In this document: in pieces, positions 29,330-57,015 of the stretch | Layout: every line of letters begins with the position of its first letter | How positions within the stretch are numbered: the first letter of the stretch is position 1 | NCBI GenBank assembly: GCA_963746465.1 | Contig: CAVVAY010000007.1 | Coordinates: forward strand, 508,937 to 572,936 | DNA length: 64,000 nucleotides | Direction of reading: 5' to 3' | From: an uncultured Actinomycetota bacterium | GTDB taxonomy: Bacteria; Actinomycetota; Actinomycetes; JACCUZ01 | Program-made: the position numbers and the translations under genes | The notes under the pieces: model-generated | What the model saw: the letters and a program-made list of their open reading frames with translations, nothing else | What the model was told of the DNA's origin: nothing | Databases searched by the model: none

Positions 29330-30483
29330 GCACCCACCCGGCGCTGGTGACCCGGGTCGCCGAACGGCTCGCGCTCGCCGGGCAGGCACCGACCGCAGCC
29401 GCCGTGACGACGGCCGTGCGGCACGAGGGTGCGGTGCTGGGCGGCCCGGGGCTGCTCGCGTTGGTGGCCGAGGTCCGCTCCGAGCTGACCGGCTTCGGGC
29501 CGTTGGAGCCGTTGCTCGCCGACGACGAGGTGAGCGACGTCCTCGTCAACGGTCCCGGCGAGGTGTGGGTCGACCGCGGGACCGGGCTGACCCGGGCCGA
29601 CGTCCGGTTCCGCGACGAAGCAGCGGTTCGCCGGCTGGCGCAACGGCTGGCGGCATCGGCCGGGCGGCGCCTCGACGTCGCGCGGCCGACGGTGGACGCG
29701 CGGTTGGCCGGCGGTGTGCGGCTGCACGCCGTCCTGCCGCCGGTGTCACCGGCCGGCACCCTGGTCAGCCTCCGGGTGGCCCGGCGGCGCACCTTCACGC
29801 TGGCCGAGCTGGTGGCTCGCGGCACGGTGCCTCTCGGCCTCGACCACGTCCTGGACGACCTGGTGCTGGCCCGGGTGTCGTTCCTGGTCACCGGCGGCAC
29901 CGGAAGCGGCAAGACGACGTTGCTCGCCACCCTGCTGTCGCGGGTGCCCCTCGCCGAGCGGATCGTGCTGGTGGAGGACTCCGGCGAGCTGGCCCCGAGT
30001 CATCCGCACGTGCTGCGGCTCGAGGCGCGCACCGCGAACGTCGAGGGTGCGGGTGCCGTCGACCTGCGCGCGCTCGTCCGCGAGGCGCTGCGGATGCGCC
30101 CGGACCGGATCGTCGTCGGCGAGGTCCGCGGCGGTGAGGTGGTCGAGCTGCTGGCTGCTCTGAACACCGGCCACGACGGCGGTGCGGGCACCGTGCATGC
30201 GTCGACCGTCGCCGCGGTCCCGGCCCGGCTCGAGGCACTCGCCCTGGCCGCCGGGATGCCGCGTGAAGCGCTGCACAGCCAGCTCGCCGCGGGGGTCCAG
30301 GCCGTCGTGCACCTGGTCCGGACGCCGGCAGGTGAGCGCCGGGTGCGCGAGATCGGGTGCGTGCTGCGCGAGCGAGACGGCTTGACCCGGGTGGCTACGG
30401 CGCTACGGGTCGACGACGCCGGACGGCTCGTCCCCGGCGAGGCGGCGGGCACGTTGACGTCGCTGCTGGCGAGCGGTCCGTGA
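29326..30483 (+). CDS. tadA: CpaF/TadA family type II/IV secretion ATPase
   Basis: It has Walker [10 protein letters not shown], a Walker B/Asp box and a His box. The GTG start overlaps the previous stop as GTGA. Confidence 0.9.
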
Positions 30484-31271
30484 CCCCCGCCGCCGCGTTG
30501 GCCATCGGGTTGGCGGCGGCTGCCGGGGCCGTCCAGCCCGGCGACCGGGGGTCGGTCCTGCAGCGTTTGTCGACGGCTCGCCCCGCTCGTCGACGGCGTC
30601 CCTCGGCGGACCTTGCCTGGTGGGCTCCGGTGCCGGTCGTGGCCGTCCTCGCGGGCTGGTCCGGTCGATCGGTTCTGCTCGGTGCCGCCGCCGGGCTGGC
30701 CGCACTGGCCGGCGCCAGAGCGGTCTCGGCCCGAGCGGCCCGACGTCGCGCGGCCGGCAGACGGGCTGCCGCCGTCGACCTGCTCGGCTCGTTGGCGGCC
30801 GAGCTCCGCGGTGGTGCCCCGCCGCGAGCCGCACTCGCGGAGGCATCGGCTGCACGCCACCCGGCACTTGCCGCGGCGGCCTGTAGCCCGGCCGCCGACG
30901 TCGTGCACGCACTGGCCGCAGCCGACGACGGCGTCGGCCTGCTCGCCGACCTTGCCGTGGCCTGGCGACTCGTCGAGGTCACCGGAGCCCGGCTGGCCGG
31001 ACCGGCGGCCCGGCTGGCCGAGTCGTCGCGGGCCGACGAGGCCGTCCGGCGCGAGGTCGCGGCTCAGTTGGCCGGTCCGCGGGCCACAGCCCTGCTCCTC
31101 GCGCTGCTGCCGTGCGCCGGCATCCTGCTCGGCGTCGGGCTCGGCGCCGACCCAGGCGGTTTCCTGCTCTCGACCGAGCCGGGTCGGCTGTGCCTGCTCG
31201 TCGGTTCGTCGTTGGTTGCGGCCGGCGTCACCTGGACCGAGGCGATCGTCGCCAGGGCCGAGTGTCCGTGA
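30480..31271 (+). CDS. tadB: TadB-like (type II secretion system F-domain) membrane protein
   Basis: The GTG start overlaps the tadA stop. It has multiple TM segments and a length (263 aa) and position typical of TadB. Confidence 0.7.
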
Positions 31272-31490
31272 CGGCTGCCTCAGCCGCGGTGCTGCTCGCG
31301 GCGCTGGCCGGGTTGGTCGCCGGCCGCGGCCGGTCCGGCGCCACGCGGCTGCGCCGGCTGCGGCGGCTGCGGCGGCGAGTGCCGAGGTCGGGCCGGGCAG
31401 CTGAGCCGGTCTCTCTGCGGCGCCGGACGGTGGCGGGGTCGGAGCCGGCTGCCTGGGTCGCCCGAGCGGTGGTCGGCCGTCGCGGCCGCG

Positions 31491-32042
31491 ATGCTGGTCA
31501 CCGGTCACGGCGCGGGCGCTGTCGTGCTGGTCGTCCTTGCACTGGCCGTGGGCATGCCCCACGCCCGTCGTCGCCGGCAGGCCGCCCTCGCGCAGCGCGT
31601 CGTGGACCGGGACCTCCCCCGGGCCGCGGACCTCACCGCCACCTGCCTGGAGGCGGGGGCTGCGCCGGCGGACGCCCTGATCGCGGTGGGGGACGCGCTC
31701 GGCGGGCCGGTGGGGACGCGCCTACGTTCGGTGTCGCTCGCCGTACGGGCGGGTTCCGACCTTCCCGACCTCGCGCGCCCTGACGACACGGACCCGCTCG
31801 CGGCCCTGCTCCGCGCGGTCGCCCGGGCGACAGCCACCGGGGCGCCGCTCGCGGACTCGGTGCGCGACGTCGCGGCCGACCAGCGGGAGCGTGCCCGTTG
31901 GCTGGCGCTCGAGCGCGCCCGCCGGGCCGGGGTATACGCCGTCGGCCCGCTCGCCGTGTGCTTCCTCCCGGCGTTCGTCGTGGTCGGCGTCGTGCCGGTC
32001 GTCGTCGGCGTCGCCCGGACGCTCCTTGCCGGCTGGTCGTGA
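31491..32042 (+). CDS. tadC: TadC-like (T2SS F-domain) membrane protein
   Basis: The 183-aa product has N- and C-terminal TM helices and a size matching mycobacterial TadC. A 220-bp gap to tadB contains an alternative frame (see findings). Confidence 0.55.
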
Positions 32043-32408: not shown

Positions 32409-32781
32409 GCCACGACGCGCCGACGGCCCCCGGGACCGCGGGTCGGCGACCGCCGAGCTGGCTGTGGTGCTGCCGGCCGTCGTGCTGCTCGCGGTGCTCG
32501 GGGTCTGGGCGGTCGCGGTCGTGGCGGCGCACCTACGCTGTGTCGACGCCGCCGGCGCAGGCGCTCGCGCCCTGGCGCGGGGGGAGCCGGCCGGGGTGGT
32601 CGAGGGAGTCGTCGCGCAGGTCGCTCCCCGGGGAGCGGTCGTCCGGCTGGGTCGCGACGGCGACCTCGTGGTCGTCGAGGTGCGGACGACGGTCCGGCTG
32701 CCGGGCCCGTGGTCGCGGGACGGGCCGGGGGTGACCGTCGGGGACCGCGCGGTCGCCGTCGCCGAGGACACCGACCCGTGA
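32389..32781 (+). CDS. TadE/TadG-family pilus assembly (pseudopilin-like) protein
   Basis: It has the TadE N-terminal motif DRGSATAELAVVLPAVVLL. The GTG start overlaps the duplicated 15-mer. Confidence 0.7.
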   Translation: MLRSDVLPRRADGPRDRGSATAELAVVLPAVVLLAVLGVWAVAVVAAHLRCVDAAGAGARALARGEPAGVVEGVVAQVAPRGAVVRLGRDGDLVVVEVRTTVRLPGPWSRDGPGVTVGDRAVAVAEDTDP

Positions 32782-33158
32782 GGCGACGCCGACCGGTGAC
32801 GCGCTCCGCTGCCGACCGCGGGTCGGCCGGGTTGCTGATGGTGTGGGTCGCCGCGGTCGTGCTGGCGGCTACGACCGCGGCGGTGGTCTGGGGCGCAGCC
32901 GTGGTGGCCCGGCACCGCGCATCCCGGACCGCCGACCTCGCGGCACTGGCGGCGGCTCGCGAGGTGGTCTCCGGCGCCGGTCAGCCGTGCACCGCCGCAG
33001 CCCGGATCGCCGATTCGGTCGGCGCCGACGTCGCGAGCTGCCGGCTCCTGCCGGACGGCTCGGTGCTGGTGGTCGTCGAGCTACCGGTGCCGGTCGCCGT
33101 GGCGGGCCTGGACATGCCACCGGCCCGGGCGAGGGCCCGGGCCGGTGCGTCGTCCTGA
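32778..33158 (+). CDS. TadE-like protein (second pseudopilin-like gene)
   Basis: The GTG at 32778 overlaps the previous stop as GTGA. It has the motif RGSAGLLMVWVAAVVLAATTAAVV. The 149-aa track ORF starts further upstream, inside tadE-like. Confidence 0.55.
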   Translation: MRRRRPVTRSAADRGSAGLLMVWVAAVVLAATTAAVVWGAAVVARHRASRTADLAALAAAREVVSGAGQPCTAAARIADSVGADVASCRLLPDGSVLVVVELPVPVAVAGLDMPPARARARAGASS

Positions 33159-33172
33159 AACGAGGCCGGTCG

Positions 33173-33711
33173 TCAGACCTCGTCGCGGTGCCGGCCGGAG
33201 GTGGAGGTGGAGGTGCTGGCCGCCTCGTCGTGCGTGGTGAGGTCGGTGTGCTGGTGCTCCACCCGGCCGTCGCTGCCGACCGTGTCCGGTCGCATCGCGG
33301 TCGAGCCGGGGCGCTCGGCCACGGTCTCGTCGTTGACCGCGGCGGTCTCGCCGGTGGTGGTGGTGCGGGGTCGGGCCGACGGTCGCGGGCGAGCTTCTCC
33401 TGCAGCTGCTCGTTCTCGGCCCGCAGCTGGGCGCGCTCCTCCTCGATCTTCGAGACCGACTCGCGCTGGCGCGACCTGGTCTCCTTGCGCTCGAGGCGCT
33501 TGCGACGCGACCTGGCGAGCGACTTCATCAGCAGGTACACACCGAGGAAGAACAGCAGCATCGTCGCGATACCGGCGACGAAGACGCCGCTGACGGTGGT
33601 GCCGATCGTCTGGCCGAAGACCTCGAACTCAGCGTCCTCACCGCCGTCGTAGATGGCACCGGCGGTCACAGCGGCAGCAACGATCATGAACAGAAGGCCG
33701 AGAGCCAACAT
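33173..33711 (-). CDS. membrane protein with two TM helices plus a coiled coil, apparently frameshifted at a (CCA)4 run
   Basis: The N-terminal 110 aa are in the frame of the 33711 start. Beyond about 33365 GC3 collapses in that frame. GC3 is very high in the -1 frame, which terminates at 33173 with ...DEAASTSTSTSGRHRDEV*. The 280-aa track ORF ending at 32869 is rejected as an artefact. Confidence 0.45.
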
Positions 33712-33757: not shown

Positions 33758-36112
33758 TCATGCACCTGCCGGCCGGCTGTCGCCGAGCACCACCGCGAGC
33801 AGCTGCAAGGCGCCAGCCTTGTCCAGCGGCTCGTTGCCGTTGCCGCACTTGGGCGACTGCACACAGGACGGACACCCCTCGAGGCACTCGCAGGCTGCGA
33901 TCGCGTCGTAGGTCGCGGTGAGCCACTCGACGGCCGCCCCGTGCCCGCGCTCGGCGAACCCCGCCCCGCCTGGGTGCCCGTCGTACACGAAGACCGTCAT
34001 CCGGCCGGTGTCGGCGTGGTGCGCGGTCGACACCCCGCCGATGTCCCACCGGTCGCAGGTCGCGAACAGCGGCAGCAGCCCGATCGACGCGTGCTCGGCG
34101 GCGTGCGCGGCGCCCGGTACGTCGAGCGCGCCAAGGCCGGCCCGCTCCAGCCCGGCATCGTCGACCGTCCACCAGACCGCCCGGGTCCGCAGGTGCCGGG
34201 GCGGCAGGTCCAGCGGCTCCTCGCCGAGCACCTCACCGGTGATCATCCGGCGGCGCAGGAAGGACACCACCTGGTTGGTCACCTGCACGGTGCCGAACGA
34301 GAGCGTGACGTGCTCCCACTCCCGTGAGCGGGCGGTCTCGACGATCTCGATCTCGGTGACGTCACGGGCCACCGTCGACCAGTCCGGCGCCGCCCGGGCC
34401 ATCCGGGCGACCTGGTCGGCGAGGTCCAGCTCGGACACCAGGTACGTCTCGCCCTGGTGCACGTAGACCGCGCCGGCGTGCACCGTCACGTGCGAGGCCG
34501 CCCCGTCGACGGTGCCCAGCAGCCGCCCGGTGCCCTCCTCGACCAGGCCCACCGGCCCGGACCCGACGCCGCGGATGTCGGCCAGGTCGCTGGCCCGCTC
34601 CGCCCGGGTCCAGTACAGACCGGGTGCCCGGCGGCGCAGCATCCCGCGGGAGACCAGGTGGTCGGCCACCTGGTCGGCGTCCGGCGCGAAGGCCGTCAGC
34701 TCGTCGTCCCGCAGCGGTGGCAGCTCGGCGGCGGCCGCGCACAGGTGCGGCGCCAGCACGTGCGGGTTGCCCGGGTCGAGCACCGTCGCCTCGACGGGGC
34801 GCCCGAACAGCGTCTCGGGGTGGTGGGTGAGGTAGGTGTCCAGCGGGTCGTCCCGGGCGACCATGACCGCGAGGGCGCCCTGGCCGGCGCGACCGGCCCG
34901 CCCGGCCTGCTGCCACAGCGAGGCCCGGGTGCCCGGCCACCCGGCGAGCAGCACGGCGTCCAGCCCGGCCACGTCGACCCCGAGCTCCAACGCGGTCGTC
35001 GACGCCACCCCGAGCAGCCGGCCGGACTGCAGGTCGGCCTCCAGCGCGCGCCGCTCCTCGGGCAGGTAGCCGGCGCGGTAGGCCGCCACCCGCGCGGCCA
35101 GGTCGGGGTCGACCTCCGCCAGCAGCCGCCGGGTGGTGGACGACACGGTCTCGGCCGCGCGCCGGGAGCGGACGAAGGCCACCGTGCGCACACCGTCGGC
35201 GACCAGGTCGGCCAGCAGGTCGGCCACCTCGGCGGTGGCGCTCCGGCGTACCGGCGCCTGGTTCTCACCCGCCAGCTCGGTCAGTGGCGGCTCCCACAGC
35301 GCGAACAACAGCTCGCCCCGCGGGGACCCGTCCTCGGTGACCGGCACCACCTCGCGGCCGACCAGCCGGGCGCCGGACACCTCCGGGTCGGTGACCGTCG
35401 CCGACGCCAGGACGAACACCGGGTCGGCGCCGTAGTGGGCGCAGACCCGCTGCAGCCGCCGGAGCACCGCCGCTACGTGCGACCCGAACACCCCGCGGTA
35501 TCGGTGGCACTCGTCGACCACGACGTACTGCAGGTCGCGGAAGAACCGGGCCCACCGGGGGTGCCCCGGCAGCATCGACCGGTGCAGCATGTCGGGGTTG
35601 GTCAGCACGTACGACGCGTGCCGGCGCACCCAGTCGCGGGACTCGGTCGGCGTGTCACCGTCGTAGGTCGCGGCACGCACCGCCTCCAGACCGAGCCCGC
35701 CCAGGGCGCGCAGCTGGTCGGCTGCCAGTGCCTTGGTGGGGGAGAGGTAGAGCGTGGTCGGAGGCGTCGCGACCCCGCCCGCCTCGGCCGACTCGAGCAC
35801 GGCCGACAGCGCGGGCAGCAGGTAGCAGAGCGACTTGCCGGACGCCGTGCCGGTTGCCACCACGGTCGACCGCCCGGCGCGGGCCAGCTCGGCCGCCTGC
35901 ACCTGGTGCGACCAGGGGGCAGTGACGCCGCTCGTGACCAGCGCCTCGACGACCGCCGGATGGGTCCAGGTCGGCCAGTCGACCGGCCGTCCGGGCCGCC
36001 CCGGCACCCGCTCGACGTGGGTGAGCCGGTCGCGCCGGCCGGTCGGCGCGACCAACCGGGCCAGCCGCTCGTCCGCCAGGCTCGCGGCCGGGAGCGGGTG
36101 GGGCTGCGGCAC
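33758..36112 (-). CDS. DEAD/DEAH-box helicase with C-terminal DUF1998 (MrfA/YprA-like)
   Basis: It has Walker [10 protein letters not shown], a DECH box, SAT, motif [10 protein letters not shown] and a C-terminal cysteine cluster [25 protein letters not shown]. The GTG at 36112 is preferred. GC3 drops upstream of it. It is syntenic with Mtb Rv3649. Confidence 0.85.
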
Positions 36113-36242
36113 CTCGGCAGTGTGCCACCCGCGTACGACATGGCCGGGGATGGTTGAATGCGACCGGTCACGGGGCACACCCGGGGCAGCAGACACCCGG
36201 CAGAACGTGCCCGACCGGACCCCGACGACAGCAGGAGGACTT

Positions 36243-36584
36243 GTGGACCTCTCCCTCTCGACCCGTACCGAGGGCGACCGCACCATCGTCGAGGTGGGTG
36301 GCGAGATCGACGTCTACACCGCCCCGCGGCTCCGCGAGCAGCTGGTCGACCTGGTCGCCGACGGCAAGTACCACCTCGTCGTCGACATGGAGCGGGTCGA
36401 CTTCCTCGACTCCACCGGGCTCGGCGTCCTGGTCGGCGGCCTCAAGCGGGTCCGCGCCCACGACGGCTCCCTGCGCCTGGTCTGCACCCAGGAGCGCATC
36501 CTGAAGATCTTCCGGATCACCGGGCTCACCAAGGTCTTCCCGATCCACGCGTCGGTCGAGGAAGCGGTCGCAGCCACCGAGTGA
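36243..36584 (+). CDS. anti-sigma factor antagonist (STAS domain, SpoIIAA-like)
   Basis: The GTG start has an AGGAGG Shine-Dalgarno 4-5 nt upstream. It has the [14 protein letters not shown] motif with the phosphorylatable Ser/Thr. Confidence 0.85.
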
Positions 36585-52885: not shown

Positions 52886-52906
52886 CGCGCGCCTAGACTC
52901 CGCCAC

Positions 52907-55712
52907 GTGACGCGCTCGGAACAGGGGACGAGGGTGCCGGCGCTCCTGCTCGAGACGAAGCTCTACGTTCCGCAGTCACCGCGTCGGTTGGTGCAGCGCT
53001 CTCGACTGAGCGAGCGGTTGGACGGCGCCTCCGGGTCGAAGCTGATCCTCGTCTCCGCGCCCGCCGGCTTCGGCAAGTCGACGCTGCTGGCCGAGTGGCT
53101 GGCGAACGGACAGGCCGGGCAGGGCACCGCTGGCGATCGGCGTTCTGTCGCCTGGGTGTCTCTCGACCCTGCAGACAACCAGCCCGCAACCTTCTGGACG
53201 TACGTCGTCGCGGCGCTCCGCACGGTGATACCCGGCGTCGGTGCGGACGCACTCGCGCTCCTCCAGGCGCCGCAACCGGCGCCGATCACCACCGTGCTCA
53301 CGACACTGCTCAACGACCTCGGCGGTGTGGACCGCGACATCGTGCTGGTCCTCGACGACTACCACGTCGTCGACGCGGCCGAGGTGCAGGACGGGATGGC
53401 CTTCCTGCTCGACCATCTTCCTCCGCAGCTGCACCTGGTGATCGCGAGCCGGGCCGACCCGGGACTGCCGCTGGCAAGGCTGCGGGCGCGCGGCGAGCTC
53501 GCCGAGATCCGCGCCGCCGACCTGCGGTTCAGCGCGGAGGAGGCGGTGGCGTACCTCAACGGGGTGATGGGACTGCGGCTCACGGCTGCCGACGTGGCAA
53601 CCCTGGAGGGCCGCACCGAGGGTTGGATCGCCGCCCTGCAGCTGGCAGCGCTGTCGATGCAGGGCCGGGATGACGCCGCCGACTTCATCGCCGGCTTCGC
53701 GGGCGACGCCCGGTACGTCGTGGACTACCTCGTCGAGGAGGTGCTGGCCCGGCAGCCCGACGGGGTCCACGACTTCCTGCTGCAGACCTCCGTCCTGGAC
53801 CGGCTCAGCGGCGCGCTGTGCGACGCCGTCACCGGCGGCACCGGTGGCACTGGTGGCACTGGTGGCACTGGTGGCAAGGCAATGCTGGAGTCGCTGGACC
53901 GGGCCAACCTGTTCCTGGTGCCGCTGGACGACCGGCGCCGGTGGTACCGCTACCACCACCTGTTCGCCGACGTGCTGCGAGCCCGCCTGCACGACGAGCG
54001 GCCCGACGTCGTCCCCGCGCTGCACCGGCGCGCGAGCGACTGGTACGAGGCGAACGGTGAGCGGGCCGTCGCCGTCGAGCACGCTCTGGCCGCCGCGGAC
54101 TTCGACCGCGCGGCGGACCTGGTCGAGCTGGCGGCGCCGGCTCTGCAGCGGGCCCGGCAGGAGGGCACATTGCGTCGGTGGATGGAGGCCATCCCCGAGG
54201 CGCACTTCCGGGTCAGGCCGGTTCTCAGCAACTCGTACGTCGGATCCCTCATGTCCACCGGTCAGATCGAGGGAGTCGAGCCGTACCTGCTCAACGCCGA
54301 GCGGTGGCTGGATGCCATGTCGGCCGAAGGTCACGGACCTCCTGACCGGCCGCCGGAGATGGTGGTCGTGGACGAGGAGGCGTTCCGGAGGCTGCCCACG
54401 TGGGTCGCCGTGCACCGCGCCGGGCAGGCACTGGTGCTCGGCGACCGGGCCGGTTGCCTCACCCACGCCGGTCGGGCGCGAGACCTGGCCGGTCCCGACG
54501 ACCACGTCGGGCGAGGAGCAGCGTCGGCACTCATCGGGTTGGCGTCATGGGGCGACGGGGACGTCAAGGCTGCTCAGGCGGGCTACTCGGAGTCGTGGAA
54601 GCACATGCATGCCGCCGGCCACATCGCCGACATCCTCGGTCTGGCGATCACGCTCGGGGACCTTCACGTCGTCCAGGGACGGCTCGGTGACGCCATGCGC
54701 ACTTACGAGGAGGCGCTGCGACTCGCCGCCGAGCAGGACGGGCCGGTCCTCCGGGGGACCGCCGACATGTACGTCGGAATGGCCGCACTCCAGCGGGAGC
54801 GAGGCGATCTCGGGACCGCGAACGAGCTCCTTGTCCGCAGCCAGGAGCTCGGCCCGCACCTGGCCCTGCCGCAGAACCCTCACCGCTGGCGGATCGCGAA
54901 GGCTCGGGTCCTGGAGGCCGAAGGAGACCTCGAGGGCGCGGTCCAGCTGCTCGACGAGGCGGAGCAGGTGTACGCCGGCGACTTCTCCCCCGACGTGCGG
55001 CCGATCGCAGCGACGAGAGCGCGGGTGCTGATCGCGCAGGGGAGATGGGCCGACGCTCTGAGCTGGGCGCGCGACCGAGAGCTGTCCGTGGACGACGACC
55101 TCAGCTATCTGCGCGAGTACGAGCACGTCACCCTGGCCAGAGCCCTGCTGGCCCGGTGCAGGACCGAGCGTGCCGAGCCAGCCCTGCGACGGGGCACTCG
55201 GGCTGCTGCGGCGGCTGCTCCAGGCAGCCGAGGCCGGCGGCCGGACCGGAACCGTGATCGAGGTCCTGGTGCTGCAGGCGCTCGCGCAGCAGGTGCGCGG
55301 CGACAACTCGGCGGCACTGGTGCCACTGGTGCAGGCCCTGACCTTGGCCGAGCCGGAAGGCTACGTCCGGCTCTTCGTCGACGAGGGCGCGCCCATGGCC
55401 GTGCTCGTGGAGGCAGCCGCCGAACGCGGGATCGCGCCGACGCTACGCCAGACGACTGCTCACGGCCTTCGACGACGCAGACCGAGACCGCCGCTCCGAC
55501 GCAACCAGGGCCTGGTCGAGCCGTTGAGCGGGCGAGAGCTCGACGTGCTGCGGCTGCTGCGAACCGACCTCGGCGGTCCGGACATCGCCCGCGAGCTCGT
55601 GGTGTCGCTGAACACCGTGCGCACCCACACGAAGAACATCTACGCCAAGCTCGGCGTGAACAACCGCCGGGCAGCGGTCCGCCGGGCCGAGGAGCTCGAC
55701 CTGCTGCGGTGA
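52907..55712 (+). pseudogene. LuxR/MalT-family ATP-dependent transcriptional regulator interrupted by a +1 frameshift at a G4 run near 55191-55194
   Basis: The N-terminal P-loop NTPase (SAPAGFGKSTLL) and TPR region are in the frame starting at 52907 up to ...RTERAEPALRR. The C-terminal part, including the LuxR HTH (LSGRELDVLRLLRTDLGGPDIARELVVSLNTVRTHTKNIYAKLGV), is in the +1 frame and ends at 55712. Removing one G restores ...EPALRRALGLLRRLLQAAEAGG.... A sequencing error cannot be excluded. Confidence 0.6.
53834..53875. repeat. 9-bp tandem repeat (GGTGGCACT, about 4.7 copies) encoding a (GGT)n linker inside the LuxR regulator
   Basis: Read from the sequence. It encodes TGGTGGTGGTGGTGGK in frame. 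Confidence 0.7.
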
Positions 55713-55721
55713 TGCCGGTGC

Positions 55722-56965
55722 TCAGCGGACGCGCTTCACCGGCAGGATGGCGGCGGCGCCGAGGAGGGCGCTGACGCCGGCGACGGCGTACAGCACGCCG
55801 TAGCTGCCGTCCGCGACCGCCAGGATGGCCGGCGCCATCGCAGGGGCCAGGGAGAACGGCAGCGCTCCGGCGATGTTGAACACGCCCAGGTCCTTGGCGG
55901 CGCTGCCCTTGTCCGGCAGCACGTCGGCGGCCAGCGCGAGGTCGACGGCCACGTACACGCCGAACCCCAGGCCGCCGATGGCCATGCCGACCAGGAACCC
56001 GTTGACGTCGGTGGCGAGGGCGATGACGAACAACGCCAGGCCGTACACGGTCGACGCGGCGAGGACGAAGAGCTTCCGGCGGCCGGTCCGGTCGGAGAGC
56101 CTGCCCCCGAGCAGCGAGGCAGCGACCACCACCGTGGACTGGACCAGGGTGCCGAGGAACACCTGGCCCGGCACGTCGTCCTCGGCGGTGCCGATCTTCT
56201 CCAGCAGGTAGTACGTCTGGTAGGTCGCCAGGAACGCGTAGGCCAGCACGAACAGGAAGCGGCTGGCGAAGGCCCAGGCGAAGTCCGGAGCCTTGCGCGG
56301 GTTGAAGTAGAACGTGCTGGCGAGCTCTCGCAGCGACCAGGCCGGCTTCTCCGCAGCGGGCCAGACCGCGGTCGTCCAGGGTCGCGGCGAAGAGCAGGAT
56401 GAAGAACCCGCCGACGGCGCACGGGACCATGAACATGGCGAGCTGGTTGCCGGTGAACAGCTTCACCAGGAAGGTGCCGGTCACCGACGCGATCGGCACG
56501 CACACGCCGAGGACGCCGGAGACCGAGCCCCGCTGCGCCGGCGGGACCTGGTCGGGCAGGACCGCGACGAGCGCTGCGAGCAGCGCGTTGAGGAACACCT
56601 GGGCGATGCACCAGCCGACGAGGACCACGGGGATCGTGGGCGCCAGGGCCACGATGAGGATGCCGAGCGAGCCGCCGAGCAGTCCGACGACGATCCACGG
56701 CCGCCGCATGCCCCACCGGGACGAGGTCCGGTCGCTCAGCCTGCCGAAGAACGGGTTGGCGAACATCGCCAGCAGGGCGCGCGACCCCGGCCACCAGCGA
56801 CAGGCTGTTCGGTGCCTGCTCGGTCCCGACCAGGGACTTGACCTTCAGGGCCAGGGTGACCAGCAGCGGCGCGAGGAACAGCAGGCTGGTGCTGATGTAG
56901 GCCAGCGTGTAGCGGGCGATGAAGCCCGGTCCGACCCGGGGTACGGCGGGCGACTCAGGCTCCAC
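55722..56965 (-). pseudogene. MFS transporter gene interrupted by two frameshifts
   Basis: Three successive frames each carry clean MFS-like segments with high GC3. They switch near 56765-56800 and near 56335-56365. The first runs 56965 to about 56780 (MEPESPAVPR...SLSLVAGV). The second runs 56766 to about 56370 (MFANPFFGRLSDR...LFAATLDDR). The third runs from about 56360 to 55722 (...WSLRELASTFYFNPRKAPDFAW...ILPVKRVR). Confidence 0.6.
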
Positions 56966-57015
56966 CGCGGCGAGTCTGCCAGCCGGGCGGCCGCGCGTCG
57001 GAGTTCACCAGCTGA

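Follow-up and report, generated by a model that had tools for sequence, protein, structure and literature searches.

A close described counterpart of the locus considered here is the TIGRFAMs helicase/secretion neighborhood (M. tuberculosis Rv3649 and Rv3654c-Rv3660c), whose marker families TIGR03817, TIGR03816, TIGR03819 and TIGR03815 all occur here, placed as expected relative to the gene that concerns us. In the window, by which we mean the whole 64-kb stretch of DNA that was analysed, the upstream gene encodes a helicase with DEAD and Helicase_C domains and an MrfA Zn-binding domain; the sequence-only reading, made earlier from the letters of this DNA without database searches, had called it Rv3649-like, and the TIGR03817 score bears this out (Table 1). 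A TIGR03819 ATPase (480 bits) and a TIGR03815 Ssd/CpaE-like protein (352 bits) both score above the curated cut-offs. The window differs in one respect: the gene flanked by those for the helicase and the TadE-like protein, which encodes a protein with two transmembrane (TM) segments and a coiled coil, matches neither a Pfam nor an NCBIfam model.

The reading frame of this gene changes part-way through, which brings described systems of other kinds into the comparison. With the residual indels of Nanopore-only metagenome-assembled genomes (MAGs; Flye + Medaka) the window shares a single-base indel that splits a conserved gene while leaving the downstream frame undecayed, as well as a density of several breaks per tens of kb; loci from Microflora Danica (MFD) are alike in this and short-read contigs are not (PMC12313526). 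With programmed -1 frameshifting, as in dnaX and the IS3-family transposases, it shares a -1 change that joins two well-conserved coding segments, and with the SSR contingency loci of Neisseria and Haemophilus, which have homopolymer or tetranucleotide tracts, a tandem repeat at the break, here next to a Tad pilus operon. We consider it probable that the frame break is a consensus indel error of sequencing or assembly and not a matter of biology, and the gene is then best explained as an unremarkable orthologue, intact in the organism, within a conserved but uncharacterised family of actinobacterial membrane proteins of ~180 aa.

Reading frames and lesion at the (ACC)4 run

The gene starts with an ATG at 33711 on the minus strand, 47 nt past the helicase stop and with a purine-rich AAAGGGG a little before it. 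Because the window is 72.8% G+C, the G+C fraction at third codon positions (GC3) is a sensitive indicator of frame. From the start down to 33367, GC3 in frame 0 is 103/115 = 0.90, with sliding windows at 0.9-1.0 down to ~33400. From 33364 to 33176 it is 62/63 = 0.98 in the -1 frame (binomial P = 5e-9 against a background of 0.70) versus 41/63 = 0.65 if the same stretch is read in frame 0. The frame switches where the (ACC)4 run lies, 33364-33353. The sequence-only reading had placed a -1 discontinuity at this run, written there as (CCA)4/(GGT)4, and its coordinates prove to be exact; its statement that the N-terminal two-TM and coiled-coil part lies in one frame is borne out by GC3 and by the orthologues alike.

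The -1 frame ends in ...TSGRHRDEV* with a TGA stop at 33175-33173. No start codon was found for it in the open stretch up to 15 codons beyond the GC3 rise, and its coding stretch holds a single GTG. This downstream frame is undecayed, with GC3 at 62/63, the C-terminal motif whole and no extra stops, and a change of 1 nt explains the break with codon bias, motif and stop all kept. Read without correction, frame 0 instead runs on to 32869 as a 280-aa ORF, the 165-aa tail of which is 53% Pro + Arg at a GC3 of 0.65, with 290 bp of it lying across the TadE-like gene (32709-33158, +). These values agree with the verdict of the sequence-only reading that the tail, running antisense into the Tad genes, is an artefact. 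The correct annotation should be a protein of 179-180 aa ending at 33173, and not the 280-aa ORF laid over the tad operon.

Table 1. Positions in the window of the membrane-protein gene and its parts, of the flanking features and of the other genes with frame breaks
Feature	Position	Strand	Evidence or remark
N-terminal part, 115 codons, frame 0	33367..33711	-	GC3 103/115; ~90-96% identity to orthologues
Frame-break site, Ala codon cut to GC_	33364..33366	-	DNA alignment against intact orthologues L012, L001, L013
(ACC)4 run, plus-strand GGTGGTGGTGGT	33353..33364	-	Thr4 in the -1 frame
C-terminal part, 63 codons + stop, -1 frame	33173..33364	-	GC3 62/63; colinear with P0001, P0004, P0005
C-terminal motif TDLTTHDEAASTSTSTSGRHRDEV	33176..33247	-	matches family consensus TDLTxxxxxAxSTSGRHRDxI
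Spurious frame-0 extension, Pro/Arg-rich	32869..33363	-	GC3 0.65; antisense into TadE-like gene
DEAH-box helicase, upstream gene	33758..36286	-	TIGR03817 1208 bits (cutoff 874); Pfam DEAD, Helicase_C, MZB
Rv3654c-family TadE-like, convergent downstream, last tad/flp operon gene	32709..33158	+	TIGR03816 77 bits (cutoff 51); Pfam Tad
Perfect 13-bp G+C hairpin CACCGGCCCGGGC / GCCCGGGCCGGTG	33118..33147	-	begins 26 nt past the corrected stop
TadC (T2SSF), tad operon, frameshifted	31268-32042	+	1-nt T insertion at 31473 against L017
MalT/LuxR regulator (AAA_16 + TPR_MalT + GerE), +1 frame change	52886-55712	+	break ~55186-55194
MFS transporter, broken twice	55722-57004	-	breaks ~56781 and ~56365; stitched protein = MFS_1 at 3e-27

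Against the DNA of intact orthologues (L012, L001 and L013), the window carries +2 nt at the site, that is, one additional ACC, in frame, minus 1 nt. L012 reads GAC CCG GCT ACC ACC AGC GGC GAG ACC and L001, which is intact in this part, reads GAC ACG GCC ACC ACC ACC GGC, where the window has GAC CCC GC. ACC ACC ACC ACC GGC GAG ACC. By this alignment the lesion is taken to be a net loss of 1 nt between 33365 and 33364, at the third base of an Ala codon, although the gain of an ACC unit together with a 1-nt loss, and a gain of 2 nt, are formally equivalent at the frame-break site. The lesion directly abuts (ACC)4 on its 5' side and leaves the register of the repeat unchanged; the missing base is outside any long homopolymer and adjoins CCCC and a CC dinucleotide. 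At the position of the run the orthologues encode TTT, TTS or ATT, with 2-3 ACC-type codons. ACC preserves the G/C third base found in 62/63 codons of the -1 frame, whereas the wrong frame reads the run as the Pro codons CCA CCA CCA CCG, CCA ending in A.

The stitched protein, with frame 0 joined to the -1 frame, retrieved 208 homologues as a query, mostly of 159-205 aa and at 99-100% query coverage, and more than 100 of the orthologues are single-frame proteins colinear with the corrected reading. The closest of them, P0001, runs straight across the break (...RRPDPATTTGETA... / ...EKLARDRRPDPATTTGETA...), and the -1 frame of the window encodes the C-terminal motif of the family exactly (...HQHTDLTTHDEAASTSTSTSGRHRDEV*). 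Two of the checks that the sequence-only reading had proposed, an alignment with orthologues and a GC3 analysis of the frames, come out in favour of its continuation in the -1 frame to 33173. Among what would speak against it, it had also named orthologues with a long Pro-rich C-terminus in the uncorrected frame; no colinear Pro/Arg-rich C-terminus occurs in accurately assembled orthologues among the 208 matches, and a similar tail is seen only in other frame-broken contigs such as P0023.

Frame breaks elsewhere in the window and in related loci

Further breaks were sought across the window with an ORF-level table of GC3 segments, followed by translation, Pfam and tblastn; this procedure replaced a phase/GC3 hidden Markov segmentation, which discriminated strands poorly and merged neighbours of the same phase. 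Four further frame breaks were found, spread over three genes of the contig that have nothing to do with the membrane protein (TadC, MalT/LuxR and MFS), which brings the 64 kb to at least five breaks in four genes. The sequence-only reading, exact as it was for the membrane-protein gene, had missed these four. In TadC, the frame that encodes residues 1-66 (31268-31471) gives way to the next one for residues 67-258; the GTG start at 31268 overlaps the TadB stop, as it does in relatives, and the ORF list gives the gene only as a shortened 183-aa ORF from ATG 31491. The TadC break (31466-31474) is located in GGTGGTCGG, with the inserted T in non-homopolymer, mixed sequence. In the MalT/LuxR regulator, positions 3-265 of the TPR_MalT model fall in the 52886-55774 frame, and positions 257-335 together with GerE in the 55062-55712 frame. 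All three segments of the MFS transporter retain high GC3, and two breaks in a single gene with undecayed GC3 in every segment are typical of random consensus errors. Because GC3 stays high in each segment of each of them, none of the broken genes resembles an old pseudogene. The four additional breaks point to a property of the assembly rather than to a gene-specific event.

As to the sequence around the breaks, three of the five are near G4/C4 runs, a suggestive though post hoc count that uses positions good only to ~+/-10 nt for two of the genes. The heptamer GGGGTCG stands at two of the five (33367, +, and 56782, -) and occurs 34 times in the window over both strands; noticed post hoc, it may indicate a motif-linked basecalling error, perhaps through methylation.

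We note two matters that arose from the same search. TadB (30357-31271, +) has an ambiguous GC3, with a competing frame scoring higher over 30670-31158. It is intact by homology to the TadB of L017 (81% identity, one frame), the ambiguity coming from an Ala-rich composition, and the case is a caution against calling frames from GC3 alone. In-frame stops suspected where neighbouring ORFs share a frame (51895, 52885 and 13730) were rejected as ordinary gene boundaries, the genes there being a 219-aa ORF, a LigD polymerase domain-like gene (by eye), the MalT-like regulator and a Crp/FNR-like gene (by eye).

Among related loci, breaks follow assembly type and not lineage or gene. Six of the eight loci of long-read type have breaks in one gene or another (the MFD Nanopore MAGs L001, L002, L005, L007 and L009, and the Flye-style contig L016), with a possible but uncertain further break in L008, versus none of the eight of short-read type (L003, L004, L006, L010, L011, L013, L014 and L015), the type labels of several loci being read from how their contigs are named (k141_, metabat, scaffold_, contig_N). 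For the MFD MAGs, assembly used Nanopore reads only, with one round of Medaka polishing (PMC12313526). The same membrane-protein gene is broken in L001 (at another position), L002 (twice), L009 (once) and L016, where GAGACC has become GAGAACC at a non-repeat position; because these breaks differ in position and direction, no break site is conserved. Other genes are affected as well: L002, L005, L007 and L016 have a split helicase, L007 also a broken STAS gene, and L001 a broken TadE-like gene. Within one clade, L014 and L015 are intact and P0014, P0034, P0061 and P0092 are broken, and the 1.58-Mb contig L017 is fully intact. By approximate counts, ~7/15 homologues on contigs >10 kb are disrupted versus ~3/105 on short contigs (Fisher P ~1e-5). 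The clustering of breaks in the linker of the protein in long-read assemblies may reflect either a systematic consensus problem of triplet-repeat, low-complexity DNA or a real indel hotspot.

A separate observation concerns L012 (152-470), from JGI 3300066008, in which a STAS gene 100% identical to that of the window lies in two mutually out-of-frame pieces. Six residues are missing between the pieces and the called product has 126 aa instead of 113, so that an indel is present in a JGI contig too.

What the break may represent

In the explanation that we favour, one base would have been dropped from the consensus at 33365/33364, 5' of (ACC)4, and its loss would have shifted the final 63 codons to the -1 frame; the source of the loss would be an error of long-read (Nanopore-type) metagenome assembly and not a mutation in the organism. 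A sequencing error was one of three options that the sequence-only reading had offered side by side, and the four additional breaks in the window, together with the pattern among relatives, make it the best of them. By analogy with its relatives, the window itself may come from a long-read assembly, in which case the missing base would be an error rather than a mutation. Not everything sits easily with a consensus error, however. The classic Nanopore indel error affects homopolymers of 6 or more bases, and the break in the window differs from it in having only a C4 run and a triplet repeat next to it; the T insertion in TadC is likewise outside a homopolymer. Moreover, the sequence would look identical in a strain in which several genes had recently lost their function by mutation.

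Such a strain, or its population, would bear a genuine recent frameshift, and the gene would be a young pseudogene or an allele of truncated function, which we regard as rather unlikely. The sequence as given does say so: taken at its word, the two-TM and coiled-coil part would be fused to an unnatural Pro/Arg-rich tail of ~165 aa, and the conserved C-terminal motif would be lost. The linker is of low complexity and rich in indels, with orthologue lengths of 159-205 aa; since its length varies among orthologues, real indels do occur there, and the position of the break outside long homopolymers also speaks for a mutation. Yet the downstream frame is without any decay (GC3 62/63, motif intact), the four other breaks in 64 kb, of which the MFS gene has two and the tad operon one, would need an unusual burst of recent inactivation, and the breaks of the relatives track assembly type and not lineage. 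We think it very improbable that the Thr/Gly/Asp-rich linker is a genuine indel hotspot giving rise to natural alleles without the cytoplasmic TDLT...SGRHRDE[IV] tail. If it were, the breaks in the window and in L001, L002, L009, L016, P0034, P0061, P0092 and P0113 would be partly real, and an interaction that depends on the tail would be switched on and off stochastically in a protein strictly syntenic with the helicase/Tad-pilus neighbourhood.

Phase variation, in which slipped-strand mispairing in (CCA)4/(GGT)4 would toggle the C-terminal tail, was another of the options left by the sequence-only reading, on the grounds that short trinucleotide runs are prone to slippage. A short tandem repeat does lie exactly at the break, the number of ACC-type codons does vary among orthologues, and the gene adjoins a pilus operon, surroundings that are a typical setting for contingency loci. 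But the proposed mechanism fails on the repeat itself and is hardly tenable, because slippage by a unit of 3 nt keeps the frame and the tract differences among the orthologues that are intact at the site (L001 included) are all in frame. A phase-variable tract would be a homopolymer or have a unit that is not a multiple of 3, as in the SSR contingency loci, whereas the lesion here is the loss of a single base beside the run, 1 nt outside the register of the unit, with copy number uninvolved. Four copies, moreover, make a shorter tract than contingency loci usually need for frequent slippage, and relatives break at unrelated, non-repeat positions, as in L016. ON and OFF tract lengths at the same locus were not seen among the contigs compared. 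Nor is there ON/OFF polymorphism in accurate assemblies, with no OFF allele in the directly examined short-read contigs or the JGI-sourced homologues (all at 99-100% coverage).

Programmed -1 ribosomal frameshifting or transcriptional slippage that joins the two frames, and so makes the break functional, can be given scarcely any credence. The shift needed would be -1 and the downstream frame is perfectly kept, but the junction, C CCC GCA CCA CCA, contains no X_XXY_YYZ slippery heptamer and bars tandem re-pairing, a tRNA-Pro on CCA being unable to re-pair on ACC after a -1 slip; for transcriptional slippage there is no A/T homopolymer at the junction. An Rfam search of the region returned no frameshift element, only sub-threshold miRNA/IRES noise, and, unlike dnaX and the IS3-family transposases, the locus has no conserved stimulatory structure. 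The two-frame layout is not conserved, the orthologues being single ORFs, and because every accurately assembled orthologue is single-frame, recoding would be unique to this contig. That the cell really makes the 280-aa product of the uncorrected ORF, which is the longest ORF with an ATG, and that the GC3 of the -1 frame is the shadow of something else, has a next to negligible chance of being right: the ORF is spurious in view of the GC3, the Pro + Arg content and the 290-bp antisense overlap of its tail, it crosses the 13-bp GC hairpin, its tail is absent from homologues while the -1 frame carries the invariant C-terminal motif of the family, and no plus-strand gene accounts for the GC3 at 33176-33364, where the plus-strand ORFs are junk-like.

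The membrane protein and its neighbourhood

With the break read as a consensus error, the protein opens with TM1 (residues 2-21), which a short loop of acidic character joins to TM2; this helix runs on as a basic coiled coil (residues 40-111). A disordered Thr/Gly/Asp-rich linker, its start (...ARDRRPDP) still in the N-terminal part, then leads into the tail, the C-terminal portion having 63 codons. An AlphaFold2 model of P0001, built with 29 homologues, has a helix at 2-21, a small beta-hairpin at 26-39, a long helix at 40-111 and disorder from 114; its mean pLDDT is 60, and it therefore supports the topology only. From the acidic loop and from RSRRKRLERK after TM2, the positive-inside rule would put both coiled coil and tail on the cytoplasmic side. 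Across the family the N-terminal part is nearly invariant and the Thr/Gly/Asp/Ala-rich linker variable, and within the motif TDLTxxxxxAxSTSGRHRDx[IV] the residues numbered T146, D147, L148 and R163 in P0001 do not vary among 29 intact homologues, the most distant of which have 58% identity.

Searches of Pfam and NCBIfam with the protein family gave no significant matches, and the automatic names RcnA, YlxW, RodZ and FtsB given to members by JGI were set aside as spurious low-complexity or TM matches. In the contig searches made here, family members were found only in uncultured Actinomycetota/Sporichthyaceae-like MAGs. Scans of genome contigs and metagenome contigs gave no sequence of the same species, relatives reaching at most ~92-94% DNA identity in the conserved N-terminal part. 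One short homologue stands apart: in P0120 (ENA, a 553-bp contig) the N-terminal 110 aa of the family run into a stretch (DGSVLVVVEVP...ARGRARAGAP) that looks like the end of the TadE-like protein, whose gene normally lies on the other strand; a small misassembly or inversion is the probable cause.

The TadE-like gene and the membrane-protein gene, as corrected, have their stops 14 nt apart, and the hairpin of Table 1 falls within the 3'-terminal part of the former, as the codons for PPARARARAG. It folds at -54.4 kcal/mol for 86 nt (z = -4.5), none of 200 shuffles being as stable, and L001, L012, L013 and L016 have largely the same sequence, differing at 1-2 positions within the loop or adjoining it. 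Because no U-tract follows the hairpin, a simple terminator scan does not report it. It may be a factor-independent, bidirectional terminator for the convergent genes, or merely a codon-constrained palindrome. Its position 26 nt past the stop at 33173 fits a transcript end there, whereas the uncorrected ORF would read through it.

The order STAS, helicase, membrane-protein gene and convergent TadE-like/TadE/DUF4244 genes is kept wherever flanks are present, that is, in the 12 of 17 related loci that have genes on both sides, and on the side present in the five cut at a contig end.

What follows from the break is in the first place a matter of how this DNA is to be read. The window is indel-prone and, given at least five breaks in four genes, other findings of a 'pseudogene', 'truncated gene' or 'overlapping ORF' in it need equal scepticism. 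As a by-product, the analysis defines an unnamed accessory gene with a conserved C-terminal motif, which is a conserved member of the actinobacterial helicase/secretion neighbourhood.
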